A DNA stretch of 64,000 nucleotides, from contig CAISIO010000020.1 in NCBI GenBank assembly GCA_903885445.1, positions 55 through 64,054 on the forward strand, in the 5' to 3' direction. Numbering within the stretch: position 1 is the first letter of the stretch; each line of letters begins with the position of its first letter. The position numbers and the translations under genes were made by a program. The stretch is from Candidatus Staskawiczbacteria bacterium (GTDB taxonomy: Bacteria > Patescibacteriota > Minisyncoccia > Minisyncoccales > Staskawiczbacteraceae). Below, piece after piece: positions 1-55,917 of this stretch. Under the pieces are notes generated by a model that was not told where the DNA came from, ran no database searches, and saw only the letters and a list, made by a program, of their open reading frames with translations.

Positions 1-491
1 TTTGTTGAGTTGGCACATGAGCTATATGCCGTGCCAGGATTGTTGCATGTATATGTGGTGTAATTTTGGTAAACGCCATTGCCTTGGCAAAATGGACCTC
101 CTGTAATGCCGCTGGTTCCGCACTGGCTGTTTGAGTGGCAGGCTATTACTGGCGCTGGCGTTGATGCAGCCGCCGCAGCCGCCGATGATGCAGACGATGA
201 TCCTCCCGCAGCGCTTGATGACGACCCTGCAGCCGCCGCTCCGGCTGATGATGGATGAGTTGGTCTGACCGCTGCGGCAGCAGCCGAAGATGCCGCTGAA
301 GATGAGCCCGCCGATGCGGCTGCTGCAGCTGCTGCAGCTGCCGCAGATGAAGACCCTGCTGATACGGCTGCAACTGAAGATGACGAAGAAGAAGCCGTAG
401 CCGCTACAATAGCCGCTGAAGATGAGTATGCCACAACAAGTATCGCCAACATAAAAGCGACCCTGCCAACTATTTTTTTTGTCTGGTTCAT
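1..491 (-). CDS. Partial CDS (C-terminus lies beyond the window start): membrane-anchored Ala/Ser-rich protein with a Cys-rich distal domain
   Basis: Manual reverse-strand translation from the ATG at 491-489 is stop-free to position 1. It reads MNQTKKIVGRVAFMLAILVVAY (anchor helix), then ~90 aa of Ala/Ser low complexity, then CHSNSQCGTSGITGGPFCQGNGVYQNYTTYTCNNPG. It is missing from the ORF track only because it has no in-window stop. Confidence 0.5.
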   Translation of the reverse strand, partial: MNQTKKIVGRVAFMLAILVVAYSSSAAIVAATASSSSSSVAAVSAGSSSAAAAAAAAAASAGSSSAASSAAAAAVRPTHPSSAGAAAAGSSSSAAGGSSSASSAAAAAASTPAPVIACHSNSQCGTSGITGGPFCQGNGVYQNYTTYTCNNPGTAYSSCANST

Positions 492-659
492 ATTTTTGTT
501 TCCGAAATTAAAGTATGTATAATATTATACACTTAATATTAAGTTAGTATTAACCTTATAAATATATGCCGAGCTACGTTGTAATATATTACAACACGAA
601 AGGCTCTTAATTAAAAGGGGTTTATTTGTATTGCCTAGTCAACAGATTAATGTTGCTTC

Positions 660-5570: not shown

Positions 5571-5606
5571 AAAAAGAAGCCCCGCGCGCATGAATGCGCT
5601 CGGGGC
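5568..5606 (-). terminator. GC-rich intrinsic terminator serving the antisense minigene
   Basis: Hairpin GCCCCGCGCGC/GCGCTCGGGGC (5579-5606). On the minus strand it is followed by TTCTTTTTT. Confidence 0.5.
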
Positions 5607-5623
5607 GGAAGTCGTCGGCTGAA

Positions 5624-5815
5624 TCACTTCGGCATCTTGACGACGCATCTTCCTCCGGGACCGTCCCATTCGACGTTATGGACAAACAATCTTTCCAGGA
5701 ATATTCGTTCGTCCACATTGTCCATCTCCACAGAGAGTTCGAATAGATCGTAGTCCTTTTCCGCCTTGAAGCCTCTTTTTTGGGCTTCTGCTAGACTAAG
5801 TGCTTTGACTTTCAT
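5624..5815 (-). CDS. Hypothetical 63-aa protein, antisense to the atp operon
   Basis: AAGGAG lies 7 nt upstream of the ATG at 5815. Sequence: MKVKALSLAEAQKRGFKAEKDYDLFELSVEMDNVDERIFLERLFVHNVEWDGPGGRCVVKMPK. It has its own terminator and a TTGACA-containing promoter-like stretch at ~5860-5890 (minus). It is visibly more G+C-rich than its flanks. No family recognised. Confidence 0.45.
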   Translation of the reverse strand: MKVKALSLAEAQKRGFKAEKDYDLFELSVEMDNVDERIFLERLFVHNVEWDGPGGRCVVKMPK

Positions 5816-5897
5816 GTAGCACTCCTTGCCCTGAGGGCAAAAGTACAAAAGTTGTCACATCAATAAATTATCATAAAAAAATAGTATTGTCAAGTAA

Positions 5898-9828: not shown

Positions 9829-9899
9829 GCGGGTATGGTTCAGTGGTAGAACGTGACCTTCCCAAGGTTAAGATACGGGTCCGATTCCCGTTACCCGCT
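9829..9899 (+). tRNA. tRNA-Gly (anticodon CCC)
   Basis: Acceptor GCGGGTA/TACCCGC, D-arm GTTC-AGTGGTA-GAAC, anticodon loop TTCCCAA, T-arm ACGGG-TCCGATT-CCCGT. 71 nt. Confidence 0.9.
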
Positions 9900-9909
9900 C
9901 ATATTATTT

Positions 9910-11598
9910 ATGAAAGAAGGGCCGGAAAATAATCATCCAAGCGAAGAGTCGGCGCCGGAAGCCGCGCCTTTAACGTATGTTCCCTTTGATGCAGGAGAGG
10001 AATTGAAAAATATTAAAAATTTACCGCCGGAGAGAGAAGATTCTCCCGAAATAATGAAAAGAGCCGTGAGGAGAGACCAAGTGTCGGATTTTAAAGATAA
10101 TTTGATGCGGCAGAAGGAAGGAATAGGCAAGACAATTGGAGATTTGCGCGCCATGGTTGAGTCTGTTCCTGACGCGTCACAGGAAGCTTTAATGCGAAAA
10201 GTTTTTGAGGTAGCTCCCGGGTACAGGTTTACGCAACAACAGGAAGGTATTTTTAAAAATGGGGTTGAGCAGTATTGCCAAAAACATCTGGCGGTGGAAA
10301 AATATAGGGAAATGTACCCGGATGACAATGACTTGTTTGAGGCGTGTTTTGGCAGAAAACCAAAAGGTAAGCTTGAGGTTGTAAAAGGACCCATGACCTT
10401 ATGTTTTCGCTGTTTTTCTGAAAATGATTATGCTTTTGTGAGGCATTTTTATGCGCACGGAGGCGATGAAAAAAAATTTGAAGCAGAGTTTGCAAACGAC
10501 TCCAATGATTCCGGGGGTGTGGCTCTTCCAGATGTAAAGATTGAGGAGTTGGCGGGAACGATTACCGCCGAAAACGCAATGGAAACTAGGTCCGGTCAAA
10601 TAGTGGAAGTTGTTGAGAAAACAAAAGAAATTCACGGCAAGTCGTTGGAGCTTTTTTCAAGTTCTCAAAAAGGAGATGTGGATATTGAGGTGAAAGATGT
10701 TGGCAAATGGAGGCTGGCAATTAAGCCAGGTTACGATTCGGCAAGAATAATATTCTTAGACTTAAACGAGGATGGCAAACCCCCGGTTTTTGATGTAGAA
10801 ACAGTTGAGGCTACTGATGAAATGCAAAGAAAGGGAAGATATGAGGGAACCATTAAGGATGTTGATGGCGGAAACGAAATGGGAAAAATAATGGTCTCTC
10901 TGAAGGTTGGCGAAAAGCGTTATGGTCTCGTGGAAGTAAGCGAGGGGTTCATCAGAATTACAGACGACTCTCCAGATGGCATGATTGTTAAATACCATGC
11001 GAAAAAATTAGTTCAGGTGTCAAAGGAAGAGGTGTCTAAGAGTATAAGGACTCACGAAGACCAGCACCAGTTCAACAAACTATTTCAGCCCCTCGAATTG
11101 GGGCAGGCATTACGTATAAAAGCAAGGGCCACAGTTGCGAAAGCAAAAACCATAGAGGATGCAACGTCAAAAATAACACATGATTTTGTAAGATTGGAAA
11201 GGCGGGAAATGGGTTTTGATTCCTGCGCGAGGGATGAAATCCTTGCTCATTATAAAGGAGGGAGGGAAACGGGCGAGATTTTTGATAATCTTACAAAGTT
11301 AAAAATTTATAATTATGCGGACCAATTTAGGCCAGAAATTGATAAAATTCCAGCCCGAGCAACGGACATATTAAAAATGGTAGCTGAGGTTGATCATTTT
11401 CAGATTGGCGAGTTAGATGTCCGGCCCCATGTTGATGCGGTGTTTGGGAAGGAATATAAAACCGACCTTAAAAAATGGCTCGATTCGATTTCTAAGCTTG
11501 AACAAAAAGGATATACCAGAGACGAAATTGTTAATTTACTTTACCAGGAGCCGGTTAACTCCTGGCCAAACCTTGCCAGGAGGATTGGTAAAAAGTAA
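9910..11598 (+). CDS. Hypothetical 562-aa soluble protein with an HExxH motif
   Basis: The long ORF was trimmed to ATG 9910 because the track start at 9853 lies inside tRNA-Gly. HEDQH is encoded at 11053-11067. There is no signal peptide or TM segment, and no family is recognised. Confidence 0.7.
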   Translation: MKEGPENNHPSEESAPEAAPLTYVPFDAGEELKNIKNLPPEREDSPEIMKRAVRRDQVSDFKDNLMRQKEGIGKTIGDLRAMVESVPDASQEALMRKVFEVAPGYRFTQQQEGIFKNGVEQYCQKHLAVEKYREMYPDDNDLFEACFGRKPKGKLEVVKGPMTLCFRCFSENDYAFVRHFYAHGGDEKKFEAEFANDSNDSGGVALPDVKIEELAGTITAENAMETRSGQIVEVVEKTKEIHGKSLELFSSSQKGDVDIEVKDVGKWRLAIKPGYDSARIIFLDLNEDGKPPVFDVETVEATDEMQRKGRYEGTIKDVDGGNEMGKIMVSLKVGEKRYGLVEVSEGFIRITDDSPDGMIVKYHAKKLVQVSKEEVSKSIRTHEDQHQFNKLFQPLELGQALRIKARATVAKAKTIEDATSKITHDFVRLERREMGFDSCARDEILAHYKGGRETGEIFDNLTKLKIYNYADQFRPEIDKIPARATDILKMVAEVDHFQIGELDVRPHVDAVFGKEYKTDLKKWLDSISKLEQKGYTRDEIVNLLYQEPVNSWPNLARRIGKK

Positions 11599-11634
11599 AA
11601 AAATCTGGTAGAATTATTGATTAAAAAATAAATT

Positions 11635-11706
11635 GCCGATGTAGCTCAGTGGTAGAGCAACGCTTTCGTAAAGCGTGGGTCGTCGGTTCAAATCCGACCA
11701 TCGGCT
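11635..11706 (+). tRNA. tRNA-Thr (anticodon CGT)
   Basis: Acceptor GCCGATG/CATCGGC, D-arm GCTC-AGTGGTA-GAGC, anticodon loop TTCGTAA, T-arm GTCGG-TTCAAAT-CCGAC. 72 nt. Confidence 0.9.
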
Positions 11707-11746
11707 CAAGGGGGATCATTCACAACCAACAGAGGAGGTAGGGCAA

Positions 11747-11935
11747 ATGATACCAGGGATTATACTGTTAGCTCTCGTCGGGGTTGCTTTGGCGCTTTTG
11801 GGCTTGTTCATGCTTCGCACTGCGTGGCATGAGGACAAGCACCCTTTGGCCAAGGCAATTGGTTACGCCTTCGGGTGTCTCTTTACGGTCGGGCCAGCGG
11901 TAGCGGCAGTTATGGTGGCACTGAAGTGCCTCTGA
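11747..11935 (+). CDS. Hypothetical 62-aa two-TM peptide
   Basis: GGAGG (11734-11738) lies 8 nt upstream of ATG 11747. Sequence: MIPGIILLALVGVALALLGLFMLRTAWHEDKHPLAKAIGYAFGCLFTVGPAVAAVMVALKCL. It is G+C-rich. The track start at 11675 lies inside tRNA-Thr and was rejected. Confidence 0.45.
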   Translation: MIPGIILLALVGVALALLGLFMLRTAWHEDKHPLAKAIGYAFGCLFTVGPAVAAVMVALKCL

Positions 11936-11959
11936 TTCTTCATGCTTTGCCTGAGTTGG

Positions 11960-11987
11960 AAAAAAATGGGGGACACGCACGTATCCC
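11960..11987 (-). terminator. Minus-strand intrinsic terminator-like hairpin
   Basis: The minus strand reads GGGATACGTGCGTGTCCC followed by CCATTTTTTT. On the plus strand the A-run precedes the hairpin, so the orientation is minus. Confidence 0.4.
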
Positions 11988-12006
11988 AACTTGGACAGGG
12001 CGCTTC

Positions 12007-12062
12007 AAGCGGCTCTAGACTTTTTAGACCTAAGGACAGGTTCTAGATTGTTTAGGCCGCTT
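12007..12062. other. Long composite hairpin
   Basis: Outer AAGCGGC/GCCGCTT, middle TCTAGA/TCTAGA and inner ACCT/AGGT pairings. It is followed by ATTTATTTGTTGTT and lies directly upstream of the 12075 promoter. Confidence 0.4.
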
Positions 12063-12074
12063 ATTTATTTGTTG

Positions 12075-12103
12075 TTGACATTGGTTTATTATTGTGCTAT
12101 CAT
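12075..12103 (+). promoter_or_regulatory. Near-consensus sigma70 promoter with extended -10
   Basis: TTGACA (12075-12080), 17 nt spacer, TGcTATCAT (12095-12103). Confidence 0.5.
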
Positions 12104-12109
12104 GATTAT

Positions 12110-12641
12110 ATTGTTGAAATTTTATCGGCTGTCTAGAAAATTGGTAATTATCGTTACATCTGTCTCACTAGCTAGTATGGCAAGAGAAGGAAATAATAAT
12201 TATCAGTTTTTTAGACAGCCGGCAGCTTTGGGCGGATAACCACTCAAAGTGGTTTGTCCCGCGTGGTGAGCGCCTGGCTCCTTGCTGGGAAGTTCCCGCG
12301 CAAAGGGTGCAGTGGACAACTTCCCTTGTTAGCGGACAAACTCGCCGGCTGTTTATTGTTCTTTGTGATCATTGCGCCTGCCAGCTTGGCGTGGCGCGCG
12401 GGCGACCTGAGATGCCCTGGAATCATTCGCGGAGTTCGTTATGATTTCAGGAAACACTCGGCCGCCCCGCTATTATGTGGGGCGATGCAGAGTTCGCCGC
12501 TTTGGTGAAGCATGTCGTGATAAAGTCCATGTAGCAGAAGATACTCATTGAGGGCTTGTACAAGTCCGTGAGCGAACTGCCTGGGCCGAACCACGAAACT
12601 ACTTTCACTATTGCGGGCGGACCTGTGTCGCCCTTTTTTTT
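12110..12641 (+). ncRNA. Candidate structured noncoding transcript (~530 nt), family unknown
   Basis: The region is bounded by the 12075 promoter and the 12615-12641 terminator. It is G+C-rich in an A+T-rich genome and has many short GC helices and alternative pairings. There is no convincing ORF. I could not find motifs of RNase P, tmRNA or SRP RNA. Confidence 0.3.
12615..12641 (+). terminator. Intrinsic terminator
   Basis: GGGCG (12615-12619) and CGCCC (12629-12633) form the stem, followed by T8. Confidence 0.65.
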
Positions 12642-12693
12642 GTTCCAAAAATTTGGTAAACTAACTAAAGAAAAACTAATTCCATTAAATGTA

Positions 12694-13765
12694 ATGGCAG
12701 AAAATAATCTGACAAAAGAATTGGAGGAAAGAGTCCGTCATTTAGTGGACTGTCTTTGACGTTGATGCAAAAGAGAAAAAATTAAAAGAACTAGAGAAAG
12801 AATCTTTAAAACCGGAGTTTTGGAATAACACGGAAAACGCCGCCAAGGTGCAACAGGAAATTTCGGAAATAAAAGAAGAAATTGGAAGCTTGGAAGGACT
12901 GAAAAAAGACTTGGAAGATTTGAAAGTTTTAGAAGACGCTAATCTTGCGAAAGAATTAGATGAGAAAATAAAAAAGCAGGAATTTAAAACTTTTTTGTCC
13001 GAGAAGTATGACAAGGGCAATGCGATTCTGGAAATATTTTCCGGAGCTGGCGGACAAGATTCGCAAGATTGGGCGACCATGCTTTTAAGAATGTACGAAA
13101 GATATTGCGCTTCAAAAGGATTTAAAACAGTAATTTTGCACCAGCAATTTGGCCAGGCGGGCGGACCGGAAGGCAGGATTGGTTTGAAATCTGCTACAAT
13201 GGAGATAGCCGGAAATTACGCTTACGGATTTTTGAAAAAGGAAGCCGGAGTGCATAGATTGGTCAGGATTTCTCCGTTTAACGCGCAAAAATTAAGGCAA
13301 ACTTCTTTTGCTTTGGTAAACATTTTGCCGGAAATCGGGCAAGATTCGGAAGTTGAAATAAGGCCGGAAGACTTGAGGGTTGATACTTTTAAAGCATCAG
13401 GACCGGGCGGACAATACGTGAACAAAACAGAATCGGCCATAAGAATTACACACATACCAACAGGGATTGTGGTTGCCTCGCAAACAGAAAGATTGCAGGG
13501 CAGGAACAAAGAAAATGCAATGAAAATTTTGCGCGCCAAACTTTCACAAATTCAGGCGGAAAACCGCGCTGATAAAATAAAAGAGTTGAAGGGCGAAGCG
13601 GTTTCTGCGAGTTGGGGCAACCAGATAAGGTCTTATGTTTTACATCCGTATAAAATGGTGAAAGATTTGCGCACGCTTTATGAAACTTCTGACCCCGAAG
13701 CTGTTTTAAACGGAGAATTAGATAAATTCATCGAGGCAGAACTAAAATTATCAAACAATGATTAA
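12694..13765 (+). CDS. prfB: Peptide chain release factor 2, requires a programmed +1 frameshift (12694..12756 joined to 12758..13765)
   Basis: Frame 0 reads MAENNLTKELEERVRHLVDCL and then TGA. The +1 frame continues DVDAKEKKLKELEKESLKPEFWNN into the track ORF, which carries the RF2 SPF tripeptide (RISPFNA) and the GGQ motif (SGPGGQYVNKTESAIRITHIPTG). Confidence 0.92.
12754..12760 (+). promoter_or_regulatory. prfB autoregulatory +1 frameshift site CTT TGA C
   Basis: This is the exact canonical slippery/stop heptamer CUU UGA C. Only a weak SD-like GTGGA lies just upstream. Confidence 0.85.
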
Positions 13766-42609: not shown

Positions 42610-43266
42610 ATGAAAACAGTAATACTCTCTGCGTTCAAGGCGTTCGGCGATTATCCTGTGAATTCGACAGAGGTAATCGCAAAGCAACTCAATGGGGAGG
42701 TCTTTTCCGGCTTCAAAGTTCGGTCCGCGATATTCTCCGCGTCAATTCCTCAAAACGACCGTGGAGTAATCCTTAGGGGACTCGTCGGCCGTTTTGGCGC
42801 CATTGCTATTGTTTCTATGGGAATGGCGTCGGAGAAGAAGGGATTGTGCGTTGAGAGCGTGGCGACAAACAGAATATATAACGAGAAATATTGCCCGCGC
42901 TTAAACGGCACGCCAGTGGACGGGCATATGCGCTATGGCGAGTTGCGCGAGGTTGACCTTTTGCAATGGAATATTAGCGCGTTTCAGAGAGCTTGCCGTT
43001 CTGAAGGTATTCCGGTTACTGAGGTCTCGAACGACGCCGGCGGTTTCTGCTGCAACCACCTTATGTATCAGGTTCTTGTCGCACCGATTGTCTGGCGTGG
43101 TTTTCGCAACGTGCCATTCGTCTTCCTGCATACTCCGTGTTCACCCGAGGCTGTGCCGGATCGCGATTCGTTCGTCAGGGCTGGCAAGATTACCATGACA
43201 ACCGCCCAGATTACTCGTGGTCTTGAATTGCTGTTGAAGCATTCGTCGCTTGATTCGGCAGGATAG
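42610..43266 (+). CDS. pcp: Pyroglutamyl peptidase I (peptidase C15)
   Basis: Catalytic contexts CVESVATN (Glu), DAGGFCCNHLMY (Cys) and FVFLHTP (His). Markedly G+C-rich. Confidence 0.8.
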   Translation: MKTVILSAFKAFGDYPVNSTEVIAKQLNGEVFSGFKVRSAIFSASIPQNDRGVILRGLVGRFGAIAIVSMGMASEKKGLCVESVATNRIYNEKYCPRLNGTPVDGHMRYGELREVDLLQWNISAFQRACRSEGIPVTEVSNDAGGFCCNHLMYQVLVAPIVWRGFRNVPFVFLHTPCSPEAVPDRDSFVRAGKITMTTAQITRGLELLLKHSSLDSAG

Positions 43267-54924: not shown

Positions 54925-55917
54925 CTATTGTTGTCTTCGTCGGCGTAGCAGCGCCAGGCCGCCCATCGCGAGCAGCGCCATACTCGCCGGCTCGGGAATG
55001 GGCGATGCTCCATTGGCGCGGCTGGCGCCGAAATTATCTCCCAAGATCGCCAGGTCGGCTCGGTCTACGACATTGTCGCCGTTGAAGTCGCCGTCCGACC
55101 ATGTGGCGCTAGTCATGCCGAAGTGCTCCTTCAGGGTAAGATAGTCAAGCACGCCGACGACACCGTCGAGATTGGCGTCGCCTGGAATCGGCTCCGGTGC
55201 GACGTCGAACATCAGCATGTCTACTCCCGGATAGCGGGCATTCGAAGTGCCGGTCCAGTAGTTGATTGCGATACTCTTGATGTACGAACCGTCGCTGGTC
55301 TTAAAGCCTACGAAGCTGCTTTTCCAGTCGGCCACGTAGGGAGCGGGGATGAGTATGCTCCCCAAGTATTGGTCGGCAATCCCATAGGCGTCCACCTGCA
55401 GTTTGTCATTCCCGGGACTGGTACCGTACAGTATCCAGTACCCGCCGACTTTGGTGGCGCCGTCTCCGGGAAGAGTCAACACGAATGGCGAGAATGGAGT
55501 TAAGGATGAGCCCCATTCTAGAAGGTAGTGGTCGCCGTCAGGTAGTTGACTGGCCTTGTTGACTGATCCATAGCTGCTAAATCCGTGACCCTCCTCGGCT
55601 CGGACGATGGTGATGCCTTGATGCGGCTGGTTGCCAGTTCCTCTTGTGTTGGGGATTGGTGCCGTCAATTGAACTCCGCTCTGCATGAAGGTATACGCAG
55701 AGTTTTTGCCCGGAATCACTAGACCGTTGGGGTAGGTCTGGTTGTCAGTGTCCTCGCTGGCGTTGGTGTAGTCCGGGGCTTCCTCGAAGCTTTCCCGAAC
55801 AGTGTTGGGGCCGAAGTCGGCCAGACCGACTTGAACCAGGTCTGCCGTGGCAGCGCCCGGCACAAAAGCCAGAACCATGGCGGCCGTTAACGCACAGTAG
55901 AGTGTTGCGGTCTTCAC
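54925..55917 (-). CDS. PEP-CTERM sorting-signal protein with dockerin-like Ca-binding repeats
   Basis: GTG start with GAGGAG 8 nt upstream. Signal peptide MKTATLYCALTAAMVLAFVPGAATA. GDANLDGVVGVLDY and GDFNGDNVVDRADL repeats. The C-terminus is IPEPASMALLAMGGLALLRRRRQQ (PEP motif, TM helix, Arg cluster). Strongly G+C-rich. Confidence 0.85.
   Translation of the reverse strand: MKTATLYCALTAAMVLAFVPGAATADLVQVGLADFGPNTVRESFEEAPDYTNASEDTDNQTYPNGLVIPGKNSAYTFMQSGVQLTAPIPNTRGTGNQPHQGITIVRAEEGHGFSSYGSVNKASQLPDGDHYLLEWGSSLTPFSPFVLTLPGDGATKVGGYWILYGTSPGNDKLQVDAYGIADQYLGSILIPAPYVADWKSSFVGFKTSDGSYIKSIAINYWTGTSNARYPGVDMLMFDVAPEPIPGDANLDGVVGVLDYLTLKEHFGMTSATWSDGDFNGDNVVDRADLAILGDNFGASRANGASPIPEPASMALLAMGGLALLRRRRQQ

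Follow-up and report, generated by a model that had tools for sequence, protein, structure and literature searches.

A candidate clade-restricted structured small RNA gene and an orphan membrane-protein gene between tRNA-Thr and prfB in an uncultured Patescibacteria genome

Overview

The stretch between tRNA-Thr(CGT) and prfB (positions 11707-12693) was analysed in a 64-kb window of DNA, meaning the whole stretch examined, from an uncultured member of the Patescibacteria (candidate phyla radiation, CPR). It probably contains a small membrane-protein gene and an independently transcribed, structured small RNA (sRNA) of a new, clade-restricted family. An earlier note, made from the letters of the DNA, had described the kilobase as a single ORF-poor unit of about 1 kb, interpreted as either a large structured non-coding RNA (ncRNA) or a foreign remnant at the tRNA. 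The stretch is instead a composite, with two lineage-specific insertions within a conserved tRNA-Gly/tRNA-Thr/prfB array. The notion of one unit was not borne out, because the kilobase consists of two elements, the first quarter being a membrane-protein gene with its own terminator-like hairpin. The proposal of a promoter-to-terminator structured RNA at 12075-12641 was strengthened by same-slot homologues, compensatory changes in two helices, and the lack of an Rfam match.

The whole tRNA-Thr/prfB stretch has a G+C content of 48.4%, compared with 39.6% for the window and 36.8% for its other spacers. Three blocks (11747-11935, 12222-12343, and 12367-12612) reach 55-58% G+C, in agreement with the description of the stretch as much more G+C-rich than its surroundings, and the promoter and prfB-leader segments have only 22%. 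Positions 11708-12847 form the longest run of the window without an open reading frame (ORF) of at least 90 amino acids (aa), so the label ORF-poor was apt in this respect; it does not suit 11747-11935, which is a real gene of 62 codons.

Homologous RNAs in the tRNA-Thr/prfB slot

The slot is bordered on the left by tRNA-Thr(CGT) (11635-11707, + strand; found by ARAGORN and scoring 74.3 bits with the Rfam tRNA model), whose array also occurs in relatives, and on the right by prfB (12694-13765, + strand), which encodes release factor 2 (RF2) and whose homologues carry the Pfam domains PCRF and RF-1. The gene order DivIC, tRNA-Gly(CCC), tRNA-Thr(CGT), prfB, ftsE, ftsX, and tRNA-Gln is kept phylum-wide. 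The RF2 protein of the window is at most 66% identical to that of any GTDB species representative and 77-82% identical to proteins on metagenome contigs, some of which are labelled Candidatus Staskawiczbacteria. Relatives (designated by L numbers) were obtained by fetching contigs through these PrfB homologues of 77-82% identity, followed by nhmmer searches.

This analysis revealed four related lineages whose tRNA-Thr/prfB slot holds a homologous RNA in the same orientation: L094/L095 (E = 3e-11), L098/L096, L102/L103 (E = 3e-15), and L097, the last reached by way of L094 and L098. Among more distant relatives, 13 have an A+T-rich spacer of 8-293 nt from tRNA-Thr to prfB; longer spacers among the more distant relatives hold ordinary ORFs of genome-typical composition, and in L081 and L091 the tRNA leads almost directly into prfB. 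No homologue of the RNA element was found in 80 PrfB loci of GTDB species or in 10 metagenome loci that had been found with a neighbouring 581-aa protein (described below), which indicates that the element is clade-restricted and an insertion. A 66-aa antisense ORF lying over the element in L102 matched only itself when used as a query.

Promoter, terminator, and predicted transcript

The RNA gene is preceded by a sigma-70 extended -10 promoter, TTGACA-17-TGcTATCAT (12075-12103, + strand; 11 of 12 matches plus the TG), the best of eight promoter-like sites in 11000-13500. Its reading as a near-consensus promoter was upheld, and the TTGACA, the 17-nt spacer, the TG, and TAnnAT were invariant across five lineages (the window, L121, L102, L094, and L098). 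At the other end lies the intrinsic terminator that had been called clean, GGGCG(G)A...UCGCCC followed by U8 (GGGCGGACCTGTGTCGCCC + T8; 12615-12641, + strand), whose GGCGA/UCGCC stem and U-run are common to the window, L094, L098, L100, and L121. Its own promoter and a Rho-independent terminator around a non-coding stretch are generic marks of a stand-alone sRNA gene, and both are present here.

With a predicted start near 12110 and a predicted end at 12641, the sRNA transcript would comprise about 532 nt of the + strand with 50.6% G+C, and nhmmer homologues of this region were found at E = 3e-11 to 3e-15. The fold z-score of 12110-12645 on the + strand was -6.9 against shuffled controls, and the four full-length homologues, window included, gave values of -6.1 to -8.5.

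Conserved core of the RNA

The most conserved module of the family is hairpin A (12126-12221, + strand), a 26-bp stem with a branched tip. A hairpin of 14 bp (12127-12140/12207-12220) had been pointed out before; it is present, and its stem runs on to 26 bp. The arms (12126-12151/12196-12221) are 88% Watson-Crick, and all 26 positions are paired in the + strand RNA when three G.U pairs are included. Across the homologues, 95.2% of cells in the hairpin were paired, 8 of the 26 pairs had changed on both sides, and one U.G was invariant; the paired percentage and the covariation score were each reached by 0 of 500 shuffles. The strand is also indicated by the covariance model built on this hairpin (R1), which scored 107-117 bits on the + strand versus 40-53 bits on the - strand, and by the three G.U pairs of the window, which would be A.C on the opposite strand. 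Relative to the window, L102 carries an 18-nt G+C-rich mini-hairpin (CGGGGCATATTGCCCAAT; 888-905) at the tip of its otherwise A+T-rich hairpin A.

A second conserved helix, P2, is formed by 12213-12223 (5' strand) and 12342-12352 (3' strand) on the + strand and closes a G+C-rich domain, domain B. It corresponds to the alternative pairing (12215-12223 with 12344-12352) proposed in the earlier note, and compensatory changes in relatives now support it: it has 11 pairs, is 93.9% paired, and shows changes on both sides of six pairs among the window, L098, and L097. Since the 5' strand of P2 overlaps the last 7-9 nt of the hairpin A 3' arm, the two pairings compete, and a fold in which P2 is enforced lies just 2.2 kcal/mol above the unconstrained minimum free energy. 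Three short helices that had been listed, AACCAC/GTGGTT (12238-12243/12249-12254), GGGAAGTT/AACTTCCC (12287-12294/12318-12325), and CGCCCC/GGGGCG (12463-12468/12479-12484), are all present and all form in the P2-enforced fold, although CGCCCC/GGGGCG is missing from the unconstrained minimum-energy fold.

Directly 3' of P2 lies a pyrimidine-rich strand, UUUAUUGUUCUUUGUG (12353-12368, + strand; consensus UYAUUGUUCUUUUG), which is conserved in the window, L094, L098, and L097 and is replaced in L102 by three GUUCUUUC repeats. It is predicted to be single-stranded, ranking within the most unpaired 1-3% of segments for three of the four homologues, and is a candidate functional site. The hairpin D of relatives contains more than 10 G.U pairs, and its pairing is kept through one-sided changes. 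Altogether, the conserved portion of the RNA amounts to about 150-200 nt, made up of the promoter, the 5' hairpin, P2, the pyrimidine strand, and the terminator. Conservation of sequence and structure with compensatory changes, a further mark of sRNA genes, was thus found in 3-4 independent sequences.

Relationship to prfB

The position of the RNA raises the question of a cis-acting prfB leader or attenuator, in which transcription of prfB-ftsE-ftsX would begin at the promoter at 12075 and a signal sensed by the RNA would determine, through a switch between hairpin A and P2, the fate of the terminator at 12615-12641. The RNA lies directly upstream of prfB and in the same orientation in every RNA-bearing lineage; hairpin A and P2 compete for ACAGCC, differ by the small folding energy given above, and are both conserved; and in L098, GGGCGAC can pair with either an upstream CGCCCC or the 3' strand of the terminator. 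However, prfB has what appears to be its own promoter, an extended -10 element TGgTAAACT (12654-12662, + strand) about 32 nt before the start codon, and TGaTAaayTA was found between the terminator and the prfB ATG, approximately 30-35 nt upstream of the latter, in nine lineages, including L091, a sister lineage that manages without the RNA. Furthermore, L098, L096, and L097 have two successive terminators ahead of TGaTAaayTA. A distance of 270-400 nt separates the competing helices from the terminator downstream, and in neither the window nor L094 is there any overlap between them. A leader would also have to use as its sensor a hypervariable region that is swapped between strains, and no riboswitch, T-box, or leader family of Rfam matched. 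Since prfB has a putative promoter of its own, two terminators stand in succession in three relatives, and the terminator is distant from the competing helices, we regard the RNA as an independent gene and a prfB leader as improbable. Membership among riboswitches, T-boxes, or attenuators was rejected on the distance of the helices from the terminator, the separate putative prfB promoter, and the lack of a family match. As judged from the sequence, the terminator of the independent RNA gene may serve to insulate prfB from the very strong promoter upstream.

Variable domains

Domain B (12224-12341, + strand; 58% G+C), which P2 encloses, is lineage-specific and is absent from L102. L096 and L097 encode identical PrfB proteins and share 98.6% identity over 1724 nt downstream of the P2 3' strand, whereas their domain B sequences (L096 1-200 and L097 1-179) are unrelated, each being closed by its own perfectly matching helix. 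Either the module was replaced as a unit between strains, or the assembly was joined at a site that varies by strain.

The 3' body (12369-12612, + strand; 54% G+C) is structured and includes the CGCCCC/GGGGCG hairpin at 12463-12484. The core 12222-12612, comprising domain B and the P2/pyrimidine segment as well, had a fold z-score of -3.3 on each strand. A covariance model of hairpins D and E of the relatives (R2) scored just 12.8 bits (E = 2) in the window, at 12343-12419, the expected position, and homology of the 3' body to these hairpins was therefore set aside as undemonstrated; nhmmer aligned the CGCC/GGGCG hairpin of the window and the bases that follow it to L094, and such a hairpin ahead of the GGCGA/UCGCC terminator belongs to the 3' end that the family has in common.

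The RNA is thus a conserved core decorated with changeable, lineage-specific G+C-rich structure. The earlier description as a large structured ncRNA did not hold in this form, as the G+C-rich bulk has no detectable homologue and part of it lies in the strain-swapped domain. With about 150-200 nt conserved and a domain swapped between strains, the RNA does not have a large conserved fold like that of RNase P RNA or OLE.

Turnover of the slot

In addition to the four RNA-bearing lineages, L101/L120, L121, and L100 hold unrelated G+C-rich bodies (L101 1900-2290, L120 1-150, L121 518-910, and L100 1-180) between a similar promoter and the same terminator plus prfB promoter. The promoter of L121 is a near-identical TTGACA-17-TGcTATCAT that starts 2 nt after the tRNA. 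L094 contains a decayed second tRNA-Thr(CGT) directly after the functional copy (1528-1580; Rfam tRNA 19.8 bits, E = 0.33), which makes past duplication or integration events at the tRNA possible, and L091 retains a 3' remnant of a second tRNA-Thr copy, TTGCAAGCGGCTCAA (2800-2820). Given the domain swaps, unrelated bodies, and decayed tRNA copies among relatives, the slot evidently turns over quickly.

Such turnover would also be expected if the stretch were a non-functional remnant, that is, if a hot spot after tRNA-Thr gathered foreign G+C-rich fragments and the promoter, hairpins, and terminator were leftovers of mobile elements. Most relatives lack the inserted stretch, unrelated bodies occupy the slot elsewhere, strains with 98.6% downstream identity differ by a swap of domain B, tRNA-Thr copies have decayed in L094 and L091, the window has other clearly foreign G+C-rich genes, and an inverted 17-nt pair (11960-11976/12625-12641) lies at the ends. 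As regards a MITE or multi-copy repeat element, for which terminal inverted repeats and several copies per genome are typical, this pair overlaps two terminator-like hairpins, and no second copy of the element occurs in the 64-kb window. Nevertheless, among lineages with PrfB identities of only about 80%, the hexamers of the promoter, its spacer, and its TG do not vary, and hairpin A has stayed paired through eight double changes. At such a distance, neutral spacers would no longer be expected to align; this conservation disfavours a remnant. The G.U pairs point to selection on a + strand RNA, and a G+C content of 55-58% is kept where spacers of the genome have 37%.

Searches for mobile elements gave no support to the remnant either. 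No direct repeat of the tRNA-Thr 3' end was found in 11500-12900, the stretch contains no integrase-like ORF and no transposase, and no second copy of the element or of its G+C-rich blocks exists in the 64-kb window. Comparison with phage and plasmid collections by blastn gave no match, and five pattern scans of IMG/VR gave only matches that did not extend beyond the seed. An integrative element at the tRNA was rejected on the missing tRNA-end repeat and integrase. The suspicion of a foreign remnant at the tRNA was therefore right in that the stretch is an insertion compared with most relatives, but att-type repeats, an integrase, phage or plasmid matches, and a pseudogene signal were all lacking, and we consider a non-functional remnant unlikely.

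Searches for known RNA families and coding signals

A scan with Rfam 15 (4227 families), a check that had been suggested earlier, found only tRNA in the whole window at the gathering score and in 11600-12800 at E <= 10. In L094 and L098 (E <= 5), L097, L100, L101, L102, and L091, the scan returned tRNAs and chance microRNA-like matches to the long hairpin, and no family for the element. Rfam does contain RNA motifs from these organisms, as a LOOT RNA (RF03000; 75.7 bits, above the gathering score) was detected in L102 upstream of tRNA-Thr (332-446, - strand); it is unrelated to the element. ARAGORN found no tmRNA, and together with the Rfam result at E <= 10 this agrees with the earlier failure to see motifs of RNase P, tmRNA, or SRP RNA.

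A very divergent version of a known RNA (RNase P RNA, tmRNA, 6S RNA, SRP RNA, a group I/II intron, or GOLLD, ROOL, OLE, or HEARO) or a frameshifted pseudogene is hardly credible as an explanation. The size and G+C contrast recall rnpB or ssrA in A+T-rich genomes, and two short strings, AAAGUCC (12533) and AAAGGGUGC (12302), recall conserved regions of RNase P RNA; their order is wrong for RNase P RNA, and the homologues have not kept them. For RNase P RNA, tmRNA, SRP RNA, and 6S RNA, no covariance-model match and no regions in canonical order were found, and the 5' and 3' ends form no 6S-like rod. Unlike that of a housekeeping RNA, the body is not conserved between relatives. A group I/II intron was rejected because the element begins only after the end of an uninterrupted tRNA-Thr, is equipped with a promoter and terminator of its own, and no intron model matched in the window; an intron-model match in L098 was a trivial 26-nt D5-like hairpin (E = 0.1). 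GOLLD, ROOL, OLE, HEARO, raiA, and the other large ncRNAs of Rfam gave no match at the gathering score or at E <= 10.

No protein match was found among the best 8000 candidates when a concatenated six-frame query was compared with 5.8 billion proteins, and a Pfam search of all ORFs of the region gave no match for 12200-12640. The period-3 signal of 12200-12640 was 1.5, compared with 3-11 for genes. A degraded protein-coding gene was rejected in the absence of translated similarity and residual periodicity, which answers the pseudogene alternative raised in the earlier note.

Small membrane-protein gene in the left part

The left part of the stretch (11732-12074) contains a 62-aa ORF with two predicted transmembrane helices (11747-11935, + strand), preceded by a Shine-Dalgarno sequence, GAGGAGG (11732-11738, + strand), read from the sequence 8 nt upstream of its ATG. 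Its G+C contents at the three codon positions (0.60/0.43/0.62) and its period-3 signal (2.9) resemble those of neighbouring genes. An exhaustive HMMER search of 1.84 billion representative proteins recovered the source's own gene call and two homologues, one of 66 aa (64% identity, E = 2e-11) and one of 59 aa (48% identity, E = 1e-5); the alignment of the three proteins has 22 invariant columns and a common two-helix layout. No Pfam, PHROG, or NCBIfam family was matched above threshold. The ORF is a real gene of a rare orphan family encoding a two-helix membrane protein, and it is absent from every RNA-carrying relative.

The small gene is probably co-transcribed with tRNA-Thr. In the fold of 11708-12074, a long hairpin (12009-12060), with its stem formed from two TCTAGA sites, is followed by a U-rich tail (12009-12074, + strand), and, judging from the sequence, this structure probably ends the transcript of tRNA-Thr and the small ORF. 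Of the nine TCTAGA sites of the window, three lie within 124 bp (12014-12137) around the sRNA promoter. The segment 12009-12030 (CGGCTCTAGAC-TTTTTAGAC) looks as if both ends of hairpin A had been collapsed into one copy.

A small two-helix hydrophobic protein beside a structured RNA with a strong promoter recalls a type I toxin-antitoxin pair, with the 62-residue protein as a putative toxin and the RNA beside it as an antitoxin pairing with the toxin mRNA. Complementarity exists over 10 perfect nt between 11839-11848 in the ORF and 12301-12310 in domain B; by our own estimate, chance would give about 0.5 perfect inverted repeats of 10 nt per 1 kb, and the duplex energy of ORF mRNA and RNA was equalled by 9 of 100 shuffles. 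Moreover, the ORF is missing from all four RNA-bearing relatives (L094, L098, and L102 among them), and its strong Shine-Dalgarno sequence is apparently unmasked. As neither consistent co-occurrence nor significant complementarity was found, a toxin-antitoxin system was rejected and is, in our assessment, very improbable.

Other features of the window

Between tRNA-Gly and tRNA-Thr lies a 581-codon ORF (9853-11598, + strand) without a Pfam family. The two tRNAs adjoin in close relatives (6-40 nt apart), which marks this ORF as a second insertion into the array. Its homologues, 27-50% identical, occupy varying positions on other Patescibacteria contigs. A 579-aa protein and a 63-aa ORF beside prfB in L099 were considered as counterparts and are unrelated to the 581-aa protein and the small ORF of the window.

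At the start of prfB, a start-stop mini-ORF (ATGTAATG; 12689-12696) overlaps the gene, with an ATG-TAA whose last A is shared with the next ATG. The prfB genes of relatives have a single ATG, placed where the first ATG of this segment sits in the window. The +1 frameshift site of prfB, CTT TGA C, is at 12754-12760.

Elsewhere in the window, the checked G+C-rich islands other than the edge block at 1-500 code for protein, unlike the tRNA-Thr/prfB stretch. One of them (42610-43266, + strand; approximately 55% G+C) is the gene of a 218-aa pyroglutamyl peptidase (Peptidase_C15). A 330-aa ORF (54925-55917, - strand; 63% G+C) encodes a PEP-CTERM sorting motif along with a dockerin type I domain; against the 39.6% G+C of the genome it appears foreign and may be a horizontal transfer or a mis-binned or chimeric segment. 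The block at the edge of the window (1-500) reaches 62% G+C and has low-complexity reading frames. The spacers 1-710 and 5571-5897 have 46% G+C and no ORF of at least 90 aa.

Discussion

We consider it probable that the tRNA-Thr/prfB stretch combines the small membrane-protein gene with a separately transcribed, structured sRNA gene of a new family confined to this clade. Patescibacteria have tiny genomes with short spacers, and a maintained non-coding unit of 0.5 kb with a consensus promoter is unlikely to be idle in such a genome. Much more tentatively, our best guess at its mode of action, held with low confidence, is that the RNA acts in trans through its exposed pyrimidine-rich strand. 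In such a mechanism, the strand would pair with purine-rich segments of mRNAs or bind a protein, hairpin A would be a module for stability or protein binding, and its competition with P2 could be a folding or switching feature. The G+C-rich domains would then be lineage-specific structural expansions, with domain B exchanged as a module between strains.

Several points weigh against the interpretation as a trans-acting sRNA of a new, clade-restricted family. The transcript and its ends are predictions, and the trans mode of action is drawn from analogy. The four independent homologues recovered are too few for a statistical test of covariation, and the pyrimidine-rich strand has no predicted exposure in L098. 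For roughly 60% of the RNA, namely domain B and 12369-12612, no homologue could be detected; this G+C-rich portion folds equally well on both strands and could therefore be passenger DNA in or beside a shorter functional RNA. The unrelated bodies in the slot of other relatives also fit a recombination hot spot that collects unrelated DNA.

A more specific arrangement can be envisaged, in which a conserved scaffold of promoter, hairpin A, P2, pyrimidine strand, and terminator carries an exchangeable, helix-closed domain B, and the slot is a dedicated landing pad for structured RNA cassettes between fixed promoter and terminator flanks. We judge this arrangement unlikely. If it applied, the scaffold would bear cassettes or carry specificity, for instance as a conflict-driven RNA that serves an episymbiotic bacterium for decoy or recognition.

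To our knowledge, almost nothing is known about RNA-based regulation in the Patescibacteria radiation. The probable sRNA family supplies a covariance model, a candidate functional strand, and a defined locus that can be looked up in metatranscriptomes. Among bacterial sRNAs, it is unusual for near-identical strains to differ by a swapped structured domain and for sister lineages to hold unrelated G+C-rich bodies in one slot; if real, the swap patterns would point to rapid and possibly conflict-driven turnover of RNA genes.

Comparison with known systems

As a bacterial sRNA gene, the element represents a new family and not a new category. The closest comparison is with RsaE/RoxS of Firmicutes, which are stand-alone trans-acting sRNAs of about 100 nt with an exposed C/U-rich pairing strand. 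In both cases, a promoter and an intrinsic terminator of their own enclose hairpins around a conserved single-stranded pyrimidine segment (predicted here), the distribution is limited to a narrow clade, and evolution is fast outside the functional strand. The RNA described here is two to five times longer (270-600 nt versus approximately 100 nt), its motif is U-rich (UUGUUCUUU) and not of the CCC type that pairs with Shine-Dalgarno sequences, and large G+C-rich domains that are lineage-specific form part of it; the two kinds are unrelated both in sequence and by Rfam.

GOLLD and ROOL are large ncRNAs that are associated with tRNA genes and have large conserved multi-helix cores. They share with this element a length of several hundred nt, a high degree of structure, a location next to tRNA genes, and an occurrence mainly in uncultured or poorly studied bacteria. 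The element differs in having no Rfam match at E <= 10, no prophage context, and a conserved portion of about 150-200 nt in place of the large conserved cores.

T-box-like leaders have a similar layout, in which a promoter, a structured RNA, a terminator, and a gene on the same strand follow one another and two helices are mutually exclusive. Here, prfB has a putative promoter of its own, the competing helices are located away from the terminator, the would-be sensor is the least conserved part, and no such family matched.

Finally, domain B can be compared with the helix-closed intervening sequences and expansion segments of rRNA and with the mobile G+C clusters of the A+T-rich mitochondrial genomes of yeasts. 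The host in this case is an sRNA and not an rRNA, evidence of excision is lacking, and the domain is single-copy in the 64 kb. Like those systems, domain B is structured and G+C-rich within A+T-rich surroundings and has a closing helix (P2), and close relatives with conserved flanks may have it, lack it, or carry a replacement, the mini-hairpin of L102 being a further case of this kind.

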